Assembly: GCF_963921235.1 (NCBI RefSeq)
Contig: NC_086097.1
Location: 73,968,001 to 74,032,000 of the forward strand
Direction of reading: 5' to 3'
DNA from: Mobula hypostoma
Lineage: Eukaryota
Length of the DNA: 64,000 nt
Numbering within the stretch: the first letter of the stretch is position 1; each line of letters starts with the position of its first letter. The notes below the pieces were generated by a model. It saw nothing but the letters and a program-made list of their open reading frames with translations. It did no database searches and had not been told where the DNA came from. Shown here piece by piece: positions 14,079 through 58,782 of the stretch. The position numbers were made by a program, and so were the translations under genes.

Positions 14079-15812
14079 AAGCACTGTGCAAAAGTCAAAG
14101 TTGCTGGTGAACGCAGCAGGCCAAGCAGCATCTGTAGGAAGAGGTGCAGTCGACTGCACCTCTTCCTAGAGATGCAGCTTGGCCTGCTGCATTCACCAGC
14201 AACTTTGATGTATGTTGCTTGAATTTCCAGCATCTGCAGAATTCCTGTTGTTTTCTGTGCAAAAGTCTTAGGTTTCCTAGATGCTTTATATAAATTTTGC
14301 TTTAAATGTTTTTTTTGTCTTCTGCATTAGTATGTCAGTAGAAAAGAGTAAATTTTAGATTTCGAAACAATCATTTTCCAAAAATTTTAAAGTTAGATTT
14401 TTTTTGTATTTTGTAAAAGAATGTAACATGCTAAGTAATATACCACTTTTCAAATTAGTATACAGCCCAGTGCATGATTAAAAAAAGATATCAAACAGGA
14501 TGCTGATGATCAATTATATAACAAGTTGAATGAACTAAACTGATTAACTGAAACCCAAATGGGTGTAGAAGGAATCAAATTGGGCAAAGGACAACTGATC
14601 TAAAATGTGAGGATGTGGCAAATGTGACAGTTTAATCTTCATATCATAAATTCCTACATCATGGTAAGAGTGAACATAGCAACGAGACACAAGCTGGTCA
14701 TCCTGTATCCGCAAGGTTTCTTCCAAGCAGACATTTCACAGTAGACAGGAGTTTCAAGATGTGCTGACCAATCTCTTCTGAAGAAGCACAAAGAAAAAGG
14801 CAAAATTGAGGACTGGAAATGCAGTGGTTGGACATGGAAACTGCAGAAAAGAGATACATCAAACTGACGTCCCTTCTAAATTGGAAGAACACCAGTACTG
14901 CTATCAGCTCTGAACTCAGAGAAACCAATGGAACTCAAGTATGCCCCCTCTACAGTCCGGAGAAGTCTTATCAGAAGTGGTCTTTATGGAGGAGTTTTTG
15001 CCAAAGAAAGCATTTCTGTGAAGTGGAAACAAAGCCATGAGTCTCGCCTATGCACAAAAATGCAAGGACTGGGGTGCTGAACAATGGCAGCAAGTGCTCT
15101 GGACAGACAACTCAAAATTTCACATTTTTGAATGAAACAGGAGGAAGTTTGTCTGTGGAAGAGCAGGAGAGCGCTACATGGATGAGTGTTTGGACCTAAT
15201 AGTGAAGCACCGTGAAGGTTCCCTGCAGGCGCAGAACTGCATTTCTCCAAAAGCAGTTGGTGATCTGATCAGAATTAATGGAATCCTCAATGCTGAGAAG
15301 TACAAGCAGATTCTCATCCATCATGCAATACCATCAGGGAGGTGTCTGATCAGTCACAACTTTATTCTGTTGCAGGACAATGACCCAAAACGCTGGGCCA
15401 AGTTCATAATGAACTATCTTCAGTGAAAAGAAGAACATGGAGTTCTGTGGCAGATGGTATGGCCTCTACAGAGCCCAGGTCTCAACATCGAGGCTGTCTG
15501 GGACTAGCTGGAGAGACAGAATCAAACAAGACAGCCAAAGTCTGCAGACGAACAGTGCCAAGTTCTCCAAGATGCTTGAAACAACCAGCCATCCAATTTT
15601 CTTATAAAACTGCATGACAGTGTACCTAACAGAACTGATGCAGTTTTAAAGGCAAAGAGTGGTCACACCAAATATAGATTTAATTTAGTTTTTTTACTGT
15701 TTACTGCTCTTTATAGTTTTTCTTTGATATTTAGTAACTTCTCATTTAACTTTTCTAAAGCCTGCTCACTTTACAGAATTTTTAATGTGCCTAAGACTTT
15801 TGCTCAGTACTG
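14079..15812 (+). mobile_element. Tc1/mariner DNA transposon, degenerate transposase
   Basis: TA flanks (14077-14078, 15813-15814); TIRs aagcactgtgcaaaagtcttagg and revcomp cagtactgagcaaaagtcttagg; remnants RYIKLTSL, GILNAEKYKQILIHHAIPSG, LQDNDPK, WPLQSPGLNIE. Confidence 0.9.
14097..14254. mobile_element. Penelope-like terminal inverted-repeat insertion forming a spacerless palindrome, inside the Tc1 left TIR
   Basis: 13-bp TSD CTGTGCAAAAGTC (14084-14096, 14255-14267); 57-bp arms (14095-14208) centred on GTCGAC; 'tttccagcatctgcaga' tail shared with the copy at ~22220. Confidence 0.75.
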
Positions 15813-39114: not shown

Positions 39115-40025
39115 CCCTCAGACTGGAGGCCTGTGACAAGTGGTGTTCCCTCAGGGTTGGTGCTGGGCTGTTTGTCATCTATATCAATGATTATGGATGG
39201 GAATGATCAAGGCAGGTTAGTAAGTTTGGAGATGCTACTAAAAGAGTTTAGTATTTGTTTACAGTGTAGGTGGATATTGGGATTTATTGAGAGATTGTGA
39301 TAGTTTACTTCTTTATTTACTTGCTTATTTATTATCTATCTATTTATCATCTGGATAGATAGGCTGAGGAATAGCAAATGGAGTTTCATCTGGATAAGTG
39401 CAAGATGTTGCATTTTAGGAAGACAAATAAGGGTAGGATTTTCATAGTAAACAGTAAGGTAGAGCTCTGGGGAATGTTGGAGAACAGAGGGAACTAGCAG
39501 TACAAACACATCTCCGTGAAGAAGGCTTTTGACACAATGCCTTTCATCAGTCAGGGTACTGAGTACAGAAATTGGGATGTTATGTTGCCGATGTAGGTGA
39601 TGTTGGTGAGGCCTCATTGGAATATTCTGTTCAACCTACTGTAGGAAAGAAGCCATTAATCTGGAAAGAGTGCAGAAGATACTTATGACTATGTTGCAAG
39701 GACTCAAGGGACTGAGTAAGGGAGAGAGGTTGAACAGATTGGGACTCTTTTAACTGGAGGTAGGAGAATGAGGGGTGATCTTACAGAAATGTATAAAATT
39801 ATGAGAGGCATACATAGGATAAATGCTGTCTTTTTCCCAGTGCTGGGGAATCAAGAACTGGTGTGCACAGATCCAAGGCAAGAAGGATAGAATTTAATCG
39901 GAACCTGAGGTACATGAGCAAGAACAGTTTAGAGGGGTATGTACCAAATACAGGCAAATATGATAAGCTTAGATGGAATTCTTGGTTGGGATGGACCAAA
40001 GGGCCTGATTTCCATGCTGTATGAC
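39115..40025 (+). mobile_element. Degenerate CR1 LINE (RT to 3' end)
   Basis: DWRPVTSGVPSGLVLG; 'aatctggaaagagtgcagaag'; terminal 'ggaccaaagggcctgatttccatgctgtatgact'. Confidence 0.75.
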
Positions 40026-40281
40026 TATTACTTGGGATTCAATTATGACATGGGGTGCTTGACTGCATGGAGTTTGAGATATCACTATGAACACCCATGT
40101 TTCCCCCAGGTGGTCCAATTTTCTCCCACATCCAGAATACATGCAGGTTGGAAGGTCAACCAGCCACTGTGAAATCCTCCCCCACTCCCCTCCGCCCAAG
40201 TGCCCTGTGTGTAGGTAAGTGGAAGAATCTGAGGTGAGTTAATGAGAATGAAATTGGAATTAATATAGTTTAGTATAAATG

Positions 40282-40825
40282 GTTTTCGGTTGGGCGCCAG
40301 ACGCTCGGAGAGATTTGGTGGGGGGGGGGGCGGGTGCCCGGCGCTCGGCCGGGGGCCTTGGTTGGCGACTTGGGCCGGCTTCCCCACCGGAATTAGTCTA
40401 GTGAGGAGGGTGTGAGGACACCCAGCAGGACTCAAAAAAACCAAGACCTAACAAAGGGTGGATGAGCTCCTTGTGAGCCAATGGCCATCTTCCGTGGAAG
40501 AGATTAAAGCCTCACCACATGTCTACGAATCGTATGCTATGCACCTAGTTAGAAGAGACTGATGAACTTGGGGGCTGCACCATGTGCCTGGACCTGACCA
40601 AGGCCTCCGCCTAAGGAAGGGCTGAGCTGGAAGAAGCGGCCGCGGCTGGAGGCCGACACGGCCTCGGGCTCGAGTTTGGCGGGGCGGCAGCGGGCAGTGC
40701 CAAGGAGGCCTGCGAGAACAAACTGGAGGAGAGGCTGTACTCGGTGCTGTCGCAAGATCGAAGAAGATGGAGGTGCATAGCCACCAACCCCGGATTCGGG
40801 ACGGCACTCACTGACTGACTGACTG
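40282..40825 (+). mobile_element. Short non-autonomous, probably RTE-derived retroelement carrying a host-gene fragment
   Basis: 10-bp TSD AGTATAAATG (40272-40281, 40826-40835); GC-rich 5' part; 3' part reads SQDRRRWRCIATNPGFGTAL (RTE-like C-terminal QDR..WR); (ACTG)n tail. Confidence 0.8.
40574..40750 (+). pseudogene. CYHR1: Circularly permuted fragment of ZFTRAF1/CYHR1 N-terminal coding sequence
   Basis: 40616-40750 encodes ..KKRPRLEA..(1 frameshift)..[19 protein letters not shown](C); 40574-40615 encodes (C)CTMCLDLTKASAY. In the order B+A these give [24 protein letters not shown], matching CYHR1 [25 protein letters not shown] as I recall it. Confidence 0.85.
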
Positions 40826-43800
40826 AGTATAAATGAGAATTGATAGCCAATGCAGATTCAGTAGGCTGAAGGGCCCATTTCCTTTCTGTATTGCTCCACG
40901 ACTCTGACACTGATTGCCTCACACATATAGATTAGAGTTTAGTATTATATTTATTGGGATAGTATCATCTAAAGTTATTGCTCATGGTAGTAAAGTATAA
41001 ATCAGGATTATACTTTCTCATTTAAAATTACTTTTATTAATGGGAGACCTGAGGTAAGGAAAAGCTTTAGATGTTACTGAGCAAGATTGAAAATTAAAAT
41101 GTGATCACTTTTGTCATTTTCTGACTAAATTCAGTACATCCTGCTGGACATAATCTGTGGTGAGTCTCCTAACATACATCATTTGCATGCTTCCAAAATG
41201 TTTATTTACAAGTGACATACTCTCATGGAGCTAGAGACGGCTTTGCCAAAGGCAGTCATCTCACAGGATTAACCGTGTTTATTGGAGGAAGAGATAGTCT
41301 TGGTGTGATTTTACTGAGGTAACAAAAGCTTGGTCACAAATTTCCTGGATCTTAGTAAATTCCTTGGAAACCCATTAAGAGATTGTTAATCTTGTTTGCA
41401 CAAAGGACAAAATGTATAGATTTATTGGATGATGTAAATTATTAAGAGGTGAGCTTTGGTGTTACCAAAAGCAAGCCTTTTCTGTTAAGAGAGCTCACAA
41501 CTCTTATTTTATTAACTCATCTATTATATTCCTGGAAGAGAAATACATGGATGCTGAAAATCGAAAAAAAAGAAAATGCTGAAAATGCTCTTTGTATTAG
41601 GCAGATTACCTGATATTTTAGGTTGAAGGTCTTTCTGATAAAAAAAAGATTGTAATGTTAACTTGATTTTTCCCTTCACAGATGCTGCCTGACCCAAAGA
41701 GTGCTTTCTGCATTTATATTTTATGTTGATAGCTTTCTACCAAATAATATTAAGTAGAATGTAGCTTAGTGAACACTATACTCCTTCAGGTTATGTGGTT
41801 CCTAGATTTGCACAGGGTTGCGTCCAGGAACAAAAGACTGAATGTTGTAGGCTGCCAAACAGGTGTAGATGATTTCATCTCTCAGTGTCTGCAGTTGCAT
41901 AGATACAGGGTCTCGTATTACACCTGAGCCTTCAAAGGATTCACAATCTCAATTTCAAGCATTCACTCACATTAGTTTTACCTCTCTTGATCTTTCATTT
42001 TGTTTTCAAATCACAATGCTGAATATTTGTAATTGACCAATTTTAACCTGTACATAAATAAAATAAATCTTTCTATGAAGGGCTACAGGTCAGCTGAGTA
42101 GAAACAGCTATAGATTTTACATATCTGCCAATCTGCCTTCACAGATTCTTCAAGTGCTTGCTTTTCAGATTAAAACTTAAATTATTTTTGAGAAGTTAGT
42201 TACATCATTGGACAGTACACATTACTTCATGTCATCCACCAGCTTAAAACAAACCTTGGAACTGATGGGATCTAAACCCACACTCCTGAGGGATCCCTGC
42301 TAGAGTCTCTTGACTATGCAACATCTGTCGCTTTAAAATACAATTCCTGTTCACATAAGTAGTTCAACTCTAAATGAGGCAAAAATAATAAAAGTTTTTA
42401 TAAACTTTGAGAGACTGACAAATAGAATACTTTAATTTCAGCACCCTCGGCATGGGAGATCAAAAATAATTTTCCTCTGAAACCAAATTAGTGGCAAAAC
42501 AGCAGGTTCACATGGAGATCTTTTCCATCATTTTTATATCCATTAACTTTAATGATACTGGCCGCGAAGATTTGTAATTAGTGGCATCCAATTTTTATTT
42601 GGATTGGAAAACATTTGATGTTTTTCATTTAGATGAGACAAAAGGAGGTGATGAGTACAACTGCACAAAGGCAGCAAGTTTATTGGTATTGAGCTGAACA
42701 AATCCAGCAGTTATATAATCAGGATTGTTCAAATACGAAGTGTATATATTTTTGAAAGGCAATCTTCATTATCTGTTTTCTGATTTTGATATGACACTTT
42801 GGCTTTAATCTCTGTCAGATTTATAACTCCATGTCATTCAAGCACTGTTTCAATTCTCATTCATGATTTTGCAACACATATTACACTACAATCTTTGCAT
42901 CTTTGGGCACTGTGCACTTCTTGTTTTATTTATTGTTGTATTTATTATTACAATGCATAACTGTTTACTTTGTGAGCTGCATGCGAACTTGGAATTTCAT
43001 TGCACCCTGGTGTATACGACAATAAACTAATCTAATCTAATCTAAATAGCCAGGAAGTCAGTGGGGAATTGATGACTTTCGAAAAGAAAGTGCCAAAAAG
43101 CTAGAGGATCAAGGAAAATAATGTTTAGCACATGGATGTGTGCTTTAGATGGCGAATCCCAGGGCAGAGGTTCGGATGAAAACGCCTACAACCGAAAATA
43201 AAATGCAGCAAATCATCTCTTCCAGCCTTGGTTCCTGTCCTGGCAGATCAACTCTGGTGGGGATTCCACTACTGCTTCAACTTAAAACAACTCAGCAGAG
43301 TCCAAACTACATAATTCTCAAGGACCCTGTCAGTTTCTGGCAGGTGTCCTTACATCTCGGCTAAGATTGTGACTGATCTGATTAAGCTGGAAAGATGTTT
43401 GTTTAAGTGCTCAACCCCATTCTGCCTGCCCCCACCAGATTTTTGGCAGACAATACCAGTTAAAATCAAATCTTCAAGCTTCTTTAATGAAAATTTGGGG
43501 GTCCAAACTTGGATTTTATTGCCTTTTTACTTTAGAATTCTGGTGAATCGTAGCTGTATATCAAATGACATCTTGTGAAGGGATAGTGGGTGGCCTGAGA
43601 AATCTGAGTACTACAAGCATGTGTAGCTGATCTCACCCTCAGTCCTCTGGCAATCTGATGATGGAAGTTTCTCGTATTGTTGTTTACTATAAAGACAGCC
43701 TACCCTGTTCTTTTGGCTGTTTGATCTTTTACATTTGCTAAAACTCTTATGCTTTAGAGGCAATACTACAGCACCATTTTTATTAAACCCAACTATAGCC

Positions 43801-52560: not shown

Positions 52561-55500
52561 TTACATTAAATGAAAATATCGAATAAAAGGTCCCCAAATC
52601 TGTTCAAATTTAAATGAAGAATCATAAAGGTTACTTCTAATTTTCTCCAGATTCAAACATAAAATCGTCTGAGAAAACCAAAAAAAGGTAGTTGGAGCAT
52701 TAAGCTCTTTCCAATGTTGTAAAATACATCTTTTCGCCATTAAAGTAAGAAATGCAATCATTCTACGGGCTGAAGGGGAAAGATTACTAGAAATTTTAGG
52801 TAGTCCAAAGATAGCAGTAATAGGGTGAGGAGAGATATCTATATTTAATACCTTAGAAATAATATTGAAAATATCTCTCCAAAAAGTTTCCAAAGTAGGG
52901 CAAGACCAAAACATATGAGTTAAAGAGGCTATCTGCCCCGAACATCTATCACAGAAAGGATTAATATGCGAGTAAAAACGCGCTAACTTATCTTTGGACA
53001 TATGTGCTCTATGAACCACTTTAAATTGAATTAGGGAATGTTTAGCACAAATAGAGGAAGTATTAACTAATTGTAAAATCTGCCCCCAATCATCCACAGA
53101 AATGGTAAGCCCCAATTCCTGTTCCCAATCTACCCTAATCTTATCAAATGGAGCTTTCCTAAGTTTCATAATAATATTATAAATCATAGCCGATGCACCT
53201 TTCTGACATGGATTAAGGTTAATTATCGAATCTAAAATATATATAGGAGGAAGCATTGGAAAGGAAGAAAGTATAGTACTTAGGAAATTTCTAACTTGTA
53301 AATATCTAAAAAAATGTATTCTTGATAAGTTATATTTATTAGATAATTGTTCAAAAGACATAAGGGAACCATCTAAAAATAAATCCAAAAACCGTAAAAT
53401 ACCCTTAGTCTTCCAAGTTTGAAAAGCGCGATCCGTAAAAGAGGGAGGAAAAAATATGTTACCTAAAATAGGAATCGCTAACCCGAATTGATTAAGATCA
53501 AAAAATTTTCTGAATTGAAACCAAATGCGCAAAGCATCTATCGGGTTAGAGACCTGCTTAAGGCGTTTCGAATCAAAAGGAAGAGAGGAACCTAAAATAG
53601 AACCAAGTGTATAACCCTGAACAGATTGTAATTCCAATGCTACCCATTTAGGAATAGATAGTATGTCCCGGTCAAGTAACCAAAATTTCATATGTCGAAT
53701 ATTAATAGCCCAATAATAAAATCTAAAGTTAGGTAATGCTAAACCTCCATCTCTCTTAGCTTTCTGTAAATGTATTTTACCCAGTCTCGGATTCTTATTC
53801 TGCCAAATAAATGAAGAAATTTTAGAGTCAACTTTATCAAAAAAAGATTTAGGAACGAAAATTGGTAATGCCTGAAACACATATAAAAATTTTGGCAAAA
53901 AAAACATCTTAACTGCATTAATACGACCAATCAAAGTTAAATATAAGGGAAACCATTTAGATGAAAGTTGAGTAATATGGTCTATTAATGGTAAAAAGTT
54001 AGTCTTAAATAAATCTTTATGTTTACAAGTAATTTTAATCCCAAGATATGAAAAGTAATTATTAATCAATTTAAATGGAAATTTATAATATAAGGGAAGA
54101 TGTTTATTAATCGGAAAAAGTTCACTCTTACTAAGATTTAATTTATAACCTGAGAAAAGACCAAATTGTGCTAATAACTCTAAAACAGCAGGAATGGATC
54201 TCTCAGGATTAGAAATATATAAAAGTAAATCATCAGCATAGAGTGATAATTTATGGGACTTTAATCCCCGAGTTATCCCAGTAATATTTGAAGATTCTCG
54301 AATAGCAATTGCAAGAGGTTCTAATGCAATATCAAATAATAGGGGACTAAGAGGACAGCCTTGTCGAGTACCACGAAAGAGAGGAAAAAAAGGTGAGTTT
54401 AAGGAGTTAGTACGAACCGAGGCTACAGGGGAGTGATATAACAGTTTAATCCAGGATATAAATTTCAAGCTAAAATTAAACATTTCAAGCACCTTAAATA
54501 AATAAGGCCATTCTACTCTATCAAAAGCTTTCTCGGCATCTAAAGAAATAACACACTCAGGAACATTTTGTGAGGGAGTATAAACGATATTTAACAATGT
54601 ACGAATATTATAAAAAGAGTAACGACCTTTAATAAAACCCGTTTGGTCTTCCGAAATAATAGAAGGAAGTACTTTTTCTAGTCTATTTGCTAATAACTTA
54701 GAAAAAACTTTAGAATCAACATTTAATAAAGATATTGGTCTATAAGATGCACATTGAGCAGGGTCTTTATCCTTCTTTAGTATTAAAGAAATTGATGCTC
54801 TATTAAAAGATTCCGGAAGTTTACCAAGTTTCAAAGAAGCCTCAAAAACCTTATAGAGCCAAGGAATCAATAAAGAAGCAAAACATTTATAAAATTCAAC
54901 GGTAAACCCATCAGGGCCAGGAGCTTTCCCCAGATTCATAGAAAAAATAACATTCTTAATCTCATCCATTGTAATGGAAGTATCTAATAAAGAAGACATA
55001 TCCTGTGAAATCTGAGGGAAGTCTAACTTATCTAAAAAATCATTCATATATTTAGAATCTCGAGGAGACTCTGATTGATATAAAGAAGAATAAAAATCAC
55101 AAAAGGTTTGATTAATCCCCACATGATCCAATATCAATCGATCATTTTGGTTATAAATCTGATTGATTTGAGATTTAACATAATTAGATTTCAATTGATT
55201 AGCCAGCAGCTTGCCAATTTTATCACTGTGAACATAAAAATCACTTCTTGTTTTCTTTAATTGGTTTACAATCGAGGACGAGAGTAGTAAACTGTGTTCC
55301 ATTTGAAGTTCAGTTCTTTGTTTGTATAGCTCCTCAGAAGGAGCCATAACATATTTCTTATCAATTTCTTTAATCTTGTCCACAATTGCCATCTCCTCCT
55401 GCTTCTGTTTCTTCCTCAAAGCAACGGAATACGAAATAATCTGACCCCGAATATAGGCTTTAAAAGTGTCCCAAAGAGTGTTAACCGAAATATCTTCTGT

Positions 55501-56331
55501 ATGGTTAATTGTAAAAAAAAGCTCAATCTGTTCATTCATAAAATTAACAAAGTCCGAGTCCTGAAGCAACAGCGAATTAAAACGCCATTGTCTATTGTTT
55601 GGTATATTGGCCATAATTTTAATAGAAAGCTTAAGTGGAGCATGATCCGAAATGGTTATAGAATCATAATCACATTTAATCACTGAAGGAATGAGACGAG
55701 AATCAATGAAAAAATAATCAATTCTTGAATAGGAATGATGAACATGTGAAAAGAAGGAAAAATCTTTTTCCTGAGGATGCAGAAAACGCCAAATGTCCGT
55801 CGACCCAGAATCAGAAAGGAAAAAATTAATCAAATTTGCAGATTTATTAGGTAAAGTCCGTAAAGGAGCCGAACGGTCCAAAGCTGGAGATAAACAGGTA
55901 TTAAGATCTCCGCCCCAAATCAATGAAAACTCGTTCAAATTCGGAAACTGATCAAACAATGATTTATAAAATTCCGGACAATCCATATTAGGAGCATAAA
56001 CATTAACCAAAACTACTTTTTTATTAAATAGTAAACCACTAACCAATAAAAATCTACCATTCGGATCAGAGATAATATCCTGTTGTATAAAAGTAACTGA
56101 GGAGTCTATAAAAATAGAGACGCCTCGAATCTTAGCATTGGAGTTCGAATGAAATTGTTGTCCCTTCCAGAATTTGAAAAAACGTAGTCTGTCCCCCCTC
56201 CGTACATGGGTCTCTTGTAAAAATAAAATTTGTGCTTTAAGTCTCCGGAACACTTTAAAAACTTTTTTCCTTTTAATAGGATGATTAAGACCATTAGTAT
56301 TCCAGGAGACAAAATTAATAATAGACTCCAT
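52561..56331 (-). CDS. L1 ORF2p: APE endonuclease, reverse transcriptase and CCHC domain (1256 aa from ATG 56331)
   Basis: SWNTNGL, LQETH, GGDLN, SDH; RQGCPLSP, YADD; CDRC..HMFWSC; no stops or frameshifts. Confidence 0.97.
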   Translation of the reverse strand: MESIINFVSWNTNGLNHPIKRKKVFKVFRRLKAQILFLQETHVRRGDRLRFFKFWKGQQFHSNSNAKIRGVSIFIDSSVTFIQQDIISDPNGRFLLVSGLLFNKKVVLVNVYAPNMDCPEFYKSLFDQFPNLNEFSLIWGGDLNTCLSPALDRSAPLRTLPNKSANLINFFLSDSGSTDIWRFLHPQEKDFSFFSHVHHSYSRIDYFFIDSRLIPSVIKCDYDSITISDHAPLKLSIKIMANIPNNRQWRFNSLLLQDSDFVNFMNEQIELFFTINHTEDISVNTLWDTFKAYIRGQIISYSVALRKKQKQEEMAIVDKIKEIDKKYVMAPSEELYKQRTELQMEHSLLLSSSIVNQLKKTRSDFYVHSDKIGKLLANQLKSNYVKSQINQIYNQNDRLILDHVGINQTFCDFYSSLYQSESPRDSKYMNDFLDKLDFPQISQDMSSLLDTSITMDEIKNVIFSMNLGKAPGPDGFTVEFYKCFASLLIPWLYKVFEASLKLGKLPESFNRASISLILKKDKDPAQCASYRPISLLNVDSKVFSKLLANRLEKVLPSIISEDQTGFIKGRYSFYNIRTLLNIVYTPSQNVPECVISLDAEKAFDRVEWPYLFKVLEMFNFSLKFISWIKLLYHSPVASVRTNSLNSPFFPLFRGTRQGCPLSPLLFDIALEPLAIAIRESSNITGITRGLKSHKLSLYADDLLLYISNPERSIPAVLELLAQFGLFSGYKLNLSKSELFPINKHLPLYYKFPFKLINNYFSYLGIKITCKHKDLFKTNFLPLIDHITQLSSKWFPLYLTLIGRINAVKMFFLPKFLYVFQALPIFVPKSFFDKVDSKISSFIWQNKNPRLGKIHLQKAKRDGGLALPNFRFYYWAINIRHMKFWLLDRDILSIPKWVALELQSVQGYTLGSILGSSLPFDSKRLKQVSNPIDALRIWFQFRKFFDLNQFGLAIPILGNIFFPPSFTDRAFQTWKTKGILRFLDLFLDGSLMSFEQLSNKYNLSRIHFFRYLQVRNFLSTILSSFPMLPPIYILDSIINLNPCQKGASAMIYNIIMKLRKAPFDKIRVDWEQELGLTISVDDWGQILQLVNTSSICAKHSLIQFKVVHRAHMSKDKLARFYSHINPFCDRCSGQIASLTHMFWSCPTLETFWRDIFNIISKVLNIDISPHPITAIFGLPKISSNLSPSARRMIAFLTLMAKRCILQHWKELNAPTTFFWFSQTILCLNLEKIRSNLYDSSFKFEQIWGPFIRYFHLM

Positions 56332-57051
56332 AAATCCTAAAGTCAACCCATAACAAGGAGGATTGACAATAGGCGCGACCCACAAACCCGGAGAGGAAAC
56401 AGAACATACAAAAGATACCGGGGAAAAGGACGCAACCAATACTTCAATAATGTATATAGCCCAAAGAGAAACAAACTAAAACGTGAAGCCCCTCCCACCA
56501 CCCCCCACCCCAAGACCCCAAGGCGAAATCTAAAGCAGACCCGCCAGAAAGAAGCAAGCGCTAAAACTACCCCCATGACTTCCGGTATACGCTCCCTAAA
56601 AAAAAGGTATAAATATGAAAAGGATCAGCTAATTGTAAAACAGTAAAAAAATAAGTAAAAAAAAGTTAGCTCAATTAAAATACACACAGAACAGAACAAA
56701 AGCCGGAAAGTATATATTAAAAAAAAAACCACAATAAACCTCAAACTCATGAATAGACACAGCAACAAAAAAAATAGGATTATTAACATAAAATGATTAT
56801 AAAAAGCAAAACAGAATAAAATTTAAAAAAAAACTACAAAATTTAAGGCCGCACAGGAAATACGTAAGATGACAAAAGGGAAGTAACCACCCAGAATCCC
56901 CTAAAAGAAAGAAATGACGCAGTTAAAAAGAAAGTTTAGCAGCCATATTAAGAAATCGAAAGTAAACTTTTCTGCCCAAATAGGGCACAGAAAAGTTAAA
57001 ACCAACCAATTCACAGCCTCCGATCAACGGAGAAAATTAAAAAAAAGGCAA

Positions 57052-57951
57052 TTAAGATGTTGAAGATGAAAGTTGATCCAGATAACTCTGGGCATCCGAT
57101 GGAGAATCAAAAAAACGAAGGGCTCCATCTAACATGCGAATCCTTAGACGTGCAGGGTACAGCAGCGCTGGTCTTAAATCCATCTTATAGAATTCCGACA
57201 TCACGGATCTGTAACGGACCCGTTGGTCCCAGATTGGTTTACTGAAATCTTCCACGAATCGGAACTTAAGATCCGAAAAATCAATGAAACCTTTAGATCG
57301 AGCGAATCGAAACAGTCTCTCCTTGTCTTGAAAGTAATGAAAACGTAAGATAACATGCCTAGGTCTATCTGACCTAGACGAGTATGATGGGATTCTGTGA
57401 ACACGATCCAGTAGCGGTGGTTGGTCAGGAAATACAGTAGGGAATGCATCTTTTAAAAGTTGGGAGAAATATTTCATAGGGTTGTTAGCTTCCACGGCTT
57501 CCCTGACGCCAATCATTCGTAAATTCTGCCGTCGCATTCTAGATTCCAAGTCAGAGTTTTTAAAAGTCAAAAAGTCAAGTTTCTTCTTCATTACATTAAT
57601 TGTTTCTTCGATTTTCCCCATCTTAAGCTCACTTTGTTGCGCGGATTTTTGAAGATCAGATATAGCCGACTGATGTTCCGCAATACATGTTTGCATCTTA
57701 TCAATTAAATCGGCAATTTTCTGGAACTTAGTTGAGATTTCCGTATGAATCAGGTCTTTAACAAAGCCCACAATTTCTGTACGAATCATCTCCCTAACAG
57801 AGGTTGAAATTTCCCTCTGAATTAACTCCGCTATCGCTTTCAAAGTCACCGGTGATTCAGTCGGAGGGAGATCCGTAGCTTTCGGTTTAACCGGAGGTTT
57901 ACCATCCTTGCCGTCTTTCCCGTTCTTAGACATAGCCGATCTCAGTATCAT
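57052..57951 (-). CDS. L1 ORF1p (coiled coil, RRM, CTD)
   Basis: Heptad-like region, then DLESRMRRQNLRMIGVRE, LDRVHR, PRHVILRFH, EDFS, LLYPARLRI; open 299 aa. Confidence 0.93.
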   Translation of the reverse strand: MILRSAMSKNGKDGKDGKPPVKPKATDLPPTESPVTLKAIAELIQREISTSVREMIRTEIVGFVKDLIHTEISTKFQKIADLIDKMQTCIAEHQSAISDLQKSAQQSELKMGKIEETINVMKKKLDFLTFKNSDLESRMRRQNLRMIGVREAVEANNPMKYFSQLLKDAFPTVFPDQPPLLDRVHRIPSYSSRSDRPRHVILRFHYFQDKERLFRFARSKGFIDFSDLKFRFVEDFSKPIWDQRVRYRSVMSEFYKMDLRPALLYPARLRIRMLDGALRFFDSPSDAQSYLDQLSSSTS

Positions 57952-58782
57952 CCAATTGTCAGAGAATTCAGTTTAATTCAAAGTATTGTAAAAATTGATG
58001 CCTTAATAGTTAATTAAAGTATAGCTGACCATAGAGAGAAAAAACTCAGAGGTAATGGAGCGAGTCAAGAACACGACTTCACTCCATGAGCGCTACCGGA
58101 AGTCTCCCGACTATTTTCTAAATGGAGAGGAAATTCAAAAATCTGAGGAGCAAAGGGACTGCAGAATCCTCGTGCAGGATTCCCAGATGGTTAACTTGTA
58201 GGTTGAGTCAGTGGTGAGGAAGGCAAATACAATGTTAGCATTCATTTTGAGAGGACTTGAATATAAAACCAAGGATGTAATGTTGAGGCTTTATAAGGCA
58301 CTGGTAAGACCTCACATGGAGAATTCTAAGCAATTTTGAGTCCCTGTCTAAGAAAGGATGAGCCGACTTTGGAGAGGGTTCAAAAGAGGCTCATGAAAAT
58401 GATTCCAAGATTGAACGGCTTACCACATGAGCAGTGTTTTATGGCTCTGGATCTGTACTCAATGTAATTTAGAATAATTAGGAGAGATCTCATTGAAACC
58501 TATCAAATGTTGAAAGGCCTCAACAGAGTGGATGTGGAGAGGATGTTTCATATGGTGGGGGAAATAGGGCACAGACTCAGAATAGAGGGACGTCCATTTT
58601 GAATGGAGATGAGGAGGAATTTCTTTAGCCAGTTAGCAGTCAATCTATGGAATTCGTTGTGGAGGCCAAATCACAGGGTATACCTAATGCAAAGGTTGAT
58701 AAATTCTTGATGAGTCAGGGCATGAACGGTTATGGGGAGAAGGCAGGAGACTGGATCTGTGAGGGAATTGGATTAGCCATGA

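Follow-up and report, generated by a model that had tools for sequence, protein, structure and literature searches.

How does a piece of a host exon come to lie inside a transposable element with its two parts exchanged and neither gap nor overlap at the point where they were once adjacent? The question is raised by the 64,000-nt stretch of Mobula hypostoma DNA analysed here (the window), in which an initial annotation had recognized a circularly permuted fragment of the gene ZFTRAF1 (CYHR1), captured into a retroelement from a circular template of about 180 nt that would have been either a back-spliced circRNA or an extrachromosomal microDNA. Permuted inserts are read as footprints of circRNA or of circular DNA, and the ray case fits neither textbook signature. 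Its three joins can be resolved to the base through hundreds of copies, one parent and a partner LINE.

Parent exon and permuted order

The un-permuted join motif has one exact match in the genome, at about 228.09 Mb on the minus strand of G000:C5. The match lies in exon 1 of ZFTRAF1, a 327-nt coding stretch that runs from the ATG to a GT donor within a CpG island (numbering starts at the A of the parental ATG, c.1, and the last base is c.327). Promoter-like motifs, read by eye, make this exon look like the first of the gene. Downstream of it, at distances of about 91 to 158 kb, are three more exons, of which exon 2, about 91 kb away, is beyond the reach of a 70-kb motif scan; the gene occupies 227.93–228.09 Mb, and its first two introns measure about 91 kb and about 62 kb. 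The gene assignment made by the initial annotation holds, as the parent's last exon matches ray ZFTRAF1/CYHR1 proteins at 99% and exon 1 can be aligned to the N-terminal ends of all six proteins compared, five from cartilaginous fishes and one from a marsupial. Pfam assigned no family to exon 1, and a homologue search with piece B of the window, which is frameshifted in this copy, returned no match.

Within the insert, c.284–323 (piece A) comes before c.146–283 (piece B), with a gap of 0 and an overlap of 0. In the parent, B's end directly abuts A's start, the two jointly forming the first Cys codon, and the exact permutation proposed for the window is thus confirmed. The unit is entirely exonic and measures 178 nt, close to the size first suggested, and the 177 nt of the window reflect one lost G. 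The boundary between the pieces had been placed at 40615/40616, near the end of exon 1; the latter is correct, with A stopping 4 nt before the donor, whereas the simplest position of the boundary itself is 40613/40614.

A genome search with the 177 bases gave 926 first-look candidates, and the 40 of them that were scored are 92–94% identical, the window itself excepted. A 22-nt junction motif, with at most one mismatch, has 739 matches in the genome against 0 for a reversed control, and the family comprises at least 739 copies. A precedes B in all 79 distinct copies, drawn from 97 loci by required core coverage. The permutation is therefore neither a chance arrangement nor private to the window. 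All four boundaries are exact in 38 of these 79, and the others vary by end mutations or deletions. The junction could be derived as a consensus from other copies, as the annotation had advised: the family majority equals the permuted parent at all but 3 of 178 positions, gap-free. In a set of 128 loci, the parent is matched by 118, always within c.145–323 and in none of them with a second turn or longer parent sequence; the other 10 lack a parent match, and the set included 9 plain LINE loci.

Could this order have arisen with no circle-like intermediate at all? One such path would be template switches made independently of one another on intact mRNA or DNA, and another would be a tandem duplication of c.146–323, since lost, from which one unit-length window was sampled. 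Template switching is routine for LINEs, the head of the element contains a fold-back rearrangement, and a lost tandem copy is compatible with the data. Against this stand the chance of exact adjacency by independent switches, about 1/178 to 1/483, and the colinearity of the parent exon with other cartilaginous fishes in our alignment. A local tandem source, named by the annotation as a possible refutation, was not found, as there is no second copy of exon 1 within 80 kb around the parent. We consider this class of explanations very improbable.

The element family and its partner LINE

The window copy is a member of a family of non-autonomous elements of about 550 nt and spans about 40280–40825 (Table 1). 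The layout is LINE 5′ UTR, permuted exon piece in sense orientation, then LINE 3′ end with tail. The proposed capture into a retroelement is borne out.

Table 1 Features of the element copy in the window
Feature	Position	Strand	Details
Left target-site duplication, 10 nt	40272..40281	+	Same as 40826-40835; last 2 nt ambiguous with element start
Head of the element, a rearranged LINE 5′ end containing an inverted piece	40280..40360	+	Long hairpin in family majority sequence; right boundary approximate
LINE 5′ UTR-derived part	40361..40573	+	87% to L101:1922-2109 across 40375-40558; blunt end at insert
Piece A, ZFTRAF1 exon 1 c.284-323	40574..40613	+	92.5% to parent; donor 4 nt beyond its end
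Piece B, ZFTRAF1 exon 1 c.146-283	40614..40750	+	92.8% to parent; one G missing from window copy
Last 75 nt of LINE (ORF end) with (ACTG)n tail	40751..40825	+	98.7% to L101:5041-5116
Right target-site duplication	40826..40835	+	Same as 40272-40281

The family goes back to a single founder and then spread by retrotransposition, as target-site duplications and 5′ truncations attest. A crude finder gave target-site duplication candidates in 32 of 106 copies, 5′ truncation is frequent with varying 5′ starts, and copies end in (ACTG)n microsatellite tails. Divergence outside CpG sites is 2.4% for the element and 3.0% for the LINE (29 copies), both figures being biased low because both sets consist of best hits. 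The 5′ UTR-derived part carries deletions of 7 nt and 10 nt relative to most LINE copies.

The inverted piece of LINE 5′ end in the head (majority positions 1–83) forms a hairpin of about 31 bp. One locus, L191 (G000:C36, about 6.549 Mb), has the parental base at two of three diagnostic sites with its joins unchanged, and may be an early branch of the family. One change at the inner join is common to 28 of 34 junction variants (L159–L188), which suggests a subfamily. At G000:C80, 8.177–8.179 Mb, two copies (L005 and L030) lie head to head about 1 kb apart. The insert itself is most likely a neutral spacer. Its ends have an expected 0.1 mutual pairs within the folded element, and Rfam matched nothing in window 39500–41500 at E up to 1.

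Thirty loci chosen by the last 65 nt of the element comprise 21 with the insert and 9 plain LINE ends. One plain locus extends to a 3.2-kb LINE whose 5′ UTR and 3′ end match both flanks of the element, and the 178-nt insert stands in place of 2,905 nt of the interior of LINE L101. This partner LINE encodes an endonuclease (Pfam) and reverse transcriptase (RT) motifs. Its relatives are endonuclease and RT proteins of about 1000 aa, and the matched ones bear no clade names. We label it RTE-type, provisionally, by architecture and by a C-terminal motif that we take to be RTE-type rather than by a tree. At two loci, L097 and L107, a LINE 3′ end follows an inverted piece of LINE 5′ UTR, an arrangement like a twin-priming product.

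Both outer joins are blunt when compared with LINE loci, and the finding of no gap and no overlap therefore does not come from ambiguous ends. At the 3′ join, the six bases before the breakpoint are identical in all 9 plain LINE loci of the 30, which share 0 bases with the end of B or with its continuation in the parent. Of 30 LINE loci compared at the 5′ join, 26 have as their next base one that differs from the first of A, 2 give an overlap of 2 nt and 2 are unreadable; the LINE copy closest to the element, which shares the 7-nt deletion and one diagnostic base, has an overlap of 0. The founder also carried a small deletion at a distance of about 12 nt from this join.

These joins bear on a DNA origin, in which a single- or double-stranded circle of 178 bp from the ZFTRAF1 CpG island, closed by end-joining and opened once, would have been patched into a broken LINE copy that lost 2.9 kb, the product then being retrotransposed. 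Filler and duplication are absent from the outer joins, and so is an insert-less precursor: the insert is present in 30 of 30 loci chosen by the 5′ part and in 7 of 7 chosen to differ at the join, and none of the 30 loci chosen by the 3′ end is such a precursor. In composition and size the unit suits microDNA, which has a size class near 180 bp; it is 71% GC, with a CpG observed/expected ratio near 1. MicroDNAs of about 200–400 bp, with exons, 5′ UTRs and CpG islands as preferred sources, have been described (PMC8040306), and blunt closure is reported for a human circle-derived duplication (PMC7450558). On balance we regard the microDNA origin as fairly unlikely.

The inner join

On the simple parse, the inner join leads from c.323 to c.146 with a microhomology of 0 and a single substitution, which lies 4 nt within A. 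The annotation had expected a back-spliced template to show A ending at the GT donor and B beginning right after an AG, and a microDNA template to show a short direct repeat at the junction. On this parse neither is seen: 4 nt are missing between the end of A and the donor, and the terminal direct repeat is 0 nt, rising to 3 nt if a 2-nt deletion is assumed. The position of the end, just inside the donor, is also one for which a DNA origin offers no reason.

Back-splicing of the exon-1 donor to a cryptic AG at c.146–147 would yield a 180-nt circle joined from c.327 to c.148, and its founder would later have lost 2 nt beside the join. Relative to that join the element has a 2-nt gap and a single substitution, and B can be read as beginning directly after an AG. 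A back-spliced circRNA also has a precedent in circRFWD2, whose 33 copies are enriched in flanking LTR sequence (PMC4897178). However, the exon looks like the gene's first, and the would-be acceptor is a GAG whose pyrimidine fraction is 0.50; a CAG located 24 nt upstream scores 0.71 and has a branch-like motif. GAG is a rare acceptor, and a nearby AG comes cheaply, as 20 AGs precede the opening point in exon 1.

No copy retains the intact back-splice join. The parent is the sole genome match to the intact donor-side motif; the two missing C's before the AG occur in none of 34 B-side variants, of which 28 have another variant in common and one is the parent; and the arrangement is unchanged in 19 copies that retain the parental base elsewhere, again without the intact join. 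A subfamily with that join was not found among the copies examined. Back-splicing thus needs two extra events. It retains some probability because the join lies near the donor and the founder has another small deletion, and we consider it improbable.

The opening point, a possible origin and its precedents

The unit was opened at the bond c.283/284, which lies exactly in the middle of a hairpin made of a perfect 6-bp stem and a 6-nt loop. This hairpin is one of two perfect ones of at least 6 bp in the unit; of the 178 bonds, 3 coincide with the centre of such a hairpin and 13 fall within such a loop. As a post hoc observation on one event, the opening at a hairpin apex is a hint only. It does remove the coincidence that the annotation had held a linear mRNA template to need: if a folded linear RNA is nicked once, both outer ends arise together and the stem keeps the halves joined, and the earlier statement was too strong. 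The predicted probability that the opening lies in a hairpin loop is 0.81 in linear RNA and 0.88 in the context of the exon, compared with 0.78 in a single-stranded DNA circle and 0.19 in a closed RNA circle. The opening in the hairpin suggests that the template was single-stranded and cut in the loop. Pairing of the fragment's ends is unremarkable, as 39% of 140 control windows score as high.

The reading that we favour, with a confidence somewhat short of even, is that an RNA fragment of exon 1, its ends joined by ligation or by an end-to-end RT jump, was nicked in a loop and captured once by the LINE RT. A single germ-line event would then have founded the short non-autonomous element. The template would be a single-stranded RNA fragment, c.146–323, whose 3′ end may be that of a first exon set free by splicing and then slightly trimmed, and which was cut once within the hairpin loop. 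By one route, RNA ligation of the original ends ahead of the cut would have made a true non-spliceosomal RNA circle; by the other, the LINE RT would have jumped end to end between two halves that were still paired. The RT would have started with 75 nt of LINE RNA, switched to B and from there to A, and returned to the LINE at its 5′ UTR, skipping 2.9 kb. The RTE-type LINE afterwards copied the element to about a thousand sites. In favour of this reading are the exact adjacency with blunt outer ends, the opening at the hairpin, the single turn, and a unit that is confined to the exon, in sense and close to the donor.

An R2-type RT has strand-displacement and end-to-end jumping activities; given these, a template that was cut would account for exactly one turn better than a closed template. 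Published systems lend indirect support: RtcB ligation makes chimeric RNA ahead of retrotransposition (PMC6789731), and Dong 2016 names RNA that is structured but open-ended as another possible origin of non-colinear pseudogenes (PMC4897178). The circle-like template of the annotation stands, a covalent circle being putative. Covalent and non-covalent closure would leave the same sequence, and exact permutation need not imply a covalent circle.

Some observations count against the exon-1 RNA reading. None of the joins has added bases or microhomology, which RT jumps often leave. The hairpin fits a single-stranded DNA circle, which would retain it, as well, and its loop is much less probable in a closed RNA circle. 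The fragment's ends pair no better than those of many control windows, and 2 of the 30 LINE loci give the 2-nt overlap; the sense orientation of the insert is a two-fold argument only. The stricter version, in which the element is the fossil of a non-spliceosomal RNA ring (an exon-1 fragment ligated, cut at the hairpin apex, copied exactly once by the LINE RT and amplified to about a thousand copies), is in our view unlikely. If true, it would mean that non-spliceosomal RNA circles enter the germ-line genome and that searches restricted to splice joins overlook them.

Precedents exist singly for bipartite RTE elements, first-exon capture, circRNA pseudogenes and circle-mediated duplications. 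A sub-exonic, exact permutation off splice sites in a non-LTR element of such copy number was not found in our searches of the open-access literature, and no similar element was listed for other genomes. Bipartite non-autonomous RTE LINEs, namely Bov-A, RTESINE, MAR4_MD and WALLSI3, are described as retaining only the two end parts, 5′ and 3′, of an RTE-type LINE, together with a microsatellite tail, no ORF and mobilization in trans (PMC5786205). The ray element resembles them, but its missing interior is replaced by a permuted piece of a host exon. First-exon capture is known from SVA_F1 (MAST2 exon 1) and pt_SVA_D6 (STK40 exon 1), in which a GC-rich first exon likewise sits in an expanding non-autonomous retroposon; these are colinear splice captures at the 5′ end, with 84 and 94 copies (PMC6139936), whereas the ray insert is internal, permuted and away from a splice join.

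The mouse circRFWD2 pseudogenes share with the ray element non-colinear host-gene sequence multiplied together with retroelement sequence. They are reported to have exact exon–exon back-splice joins, several exons, LTR-rich flanks and 33 copies (PMC4897178), in contrast to a sub-exonic insert, off the donor, in a non-LTR element with 739 or more copies. Circle-mediated duplications show the same change of order, from A-B/C-D to B-A/D-C, with blunt or near-blunt joins (PMC7450558, PMC7188851, PMC9132208). They were sought in segmental duplications above 1 kb and range from 22 kb to 3.9 Mb among the examples listed in those sources, whereas the ray insert is 178 nt long and was then amplified by retrotransposition. 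The U6/L1 chimeras made by RtcB ligation offer a route to blunt joins made in RNA ahead of retrotransposition; they have one join between two RNAs (PMC6789731), compared with three joins and a permutation here, where ligation is putative.

The ray family thus provides a defined substrate for studying how a LINE RT handles closed and cut circular templates, and it has dispersed a CpG-rich fragment of a promoter island to many hundreds of sites.

Elsewhere in the window, the minus strand at 52561–57972 carries a LINE with two long open frames, of 306 aa (Transposase_22) and 1304 aa (endonuclease, RT and zf-RVT). By these domains it is L1/Tx1-like, and it is possibly intact. An inverted repeat at 14095–14208 has arms of 57 nt that are 95% complementary and abut without a spacer.
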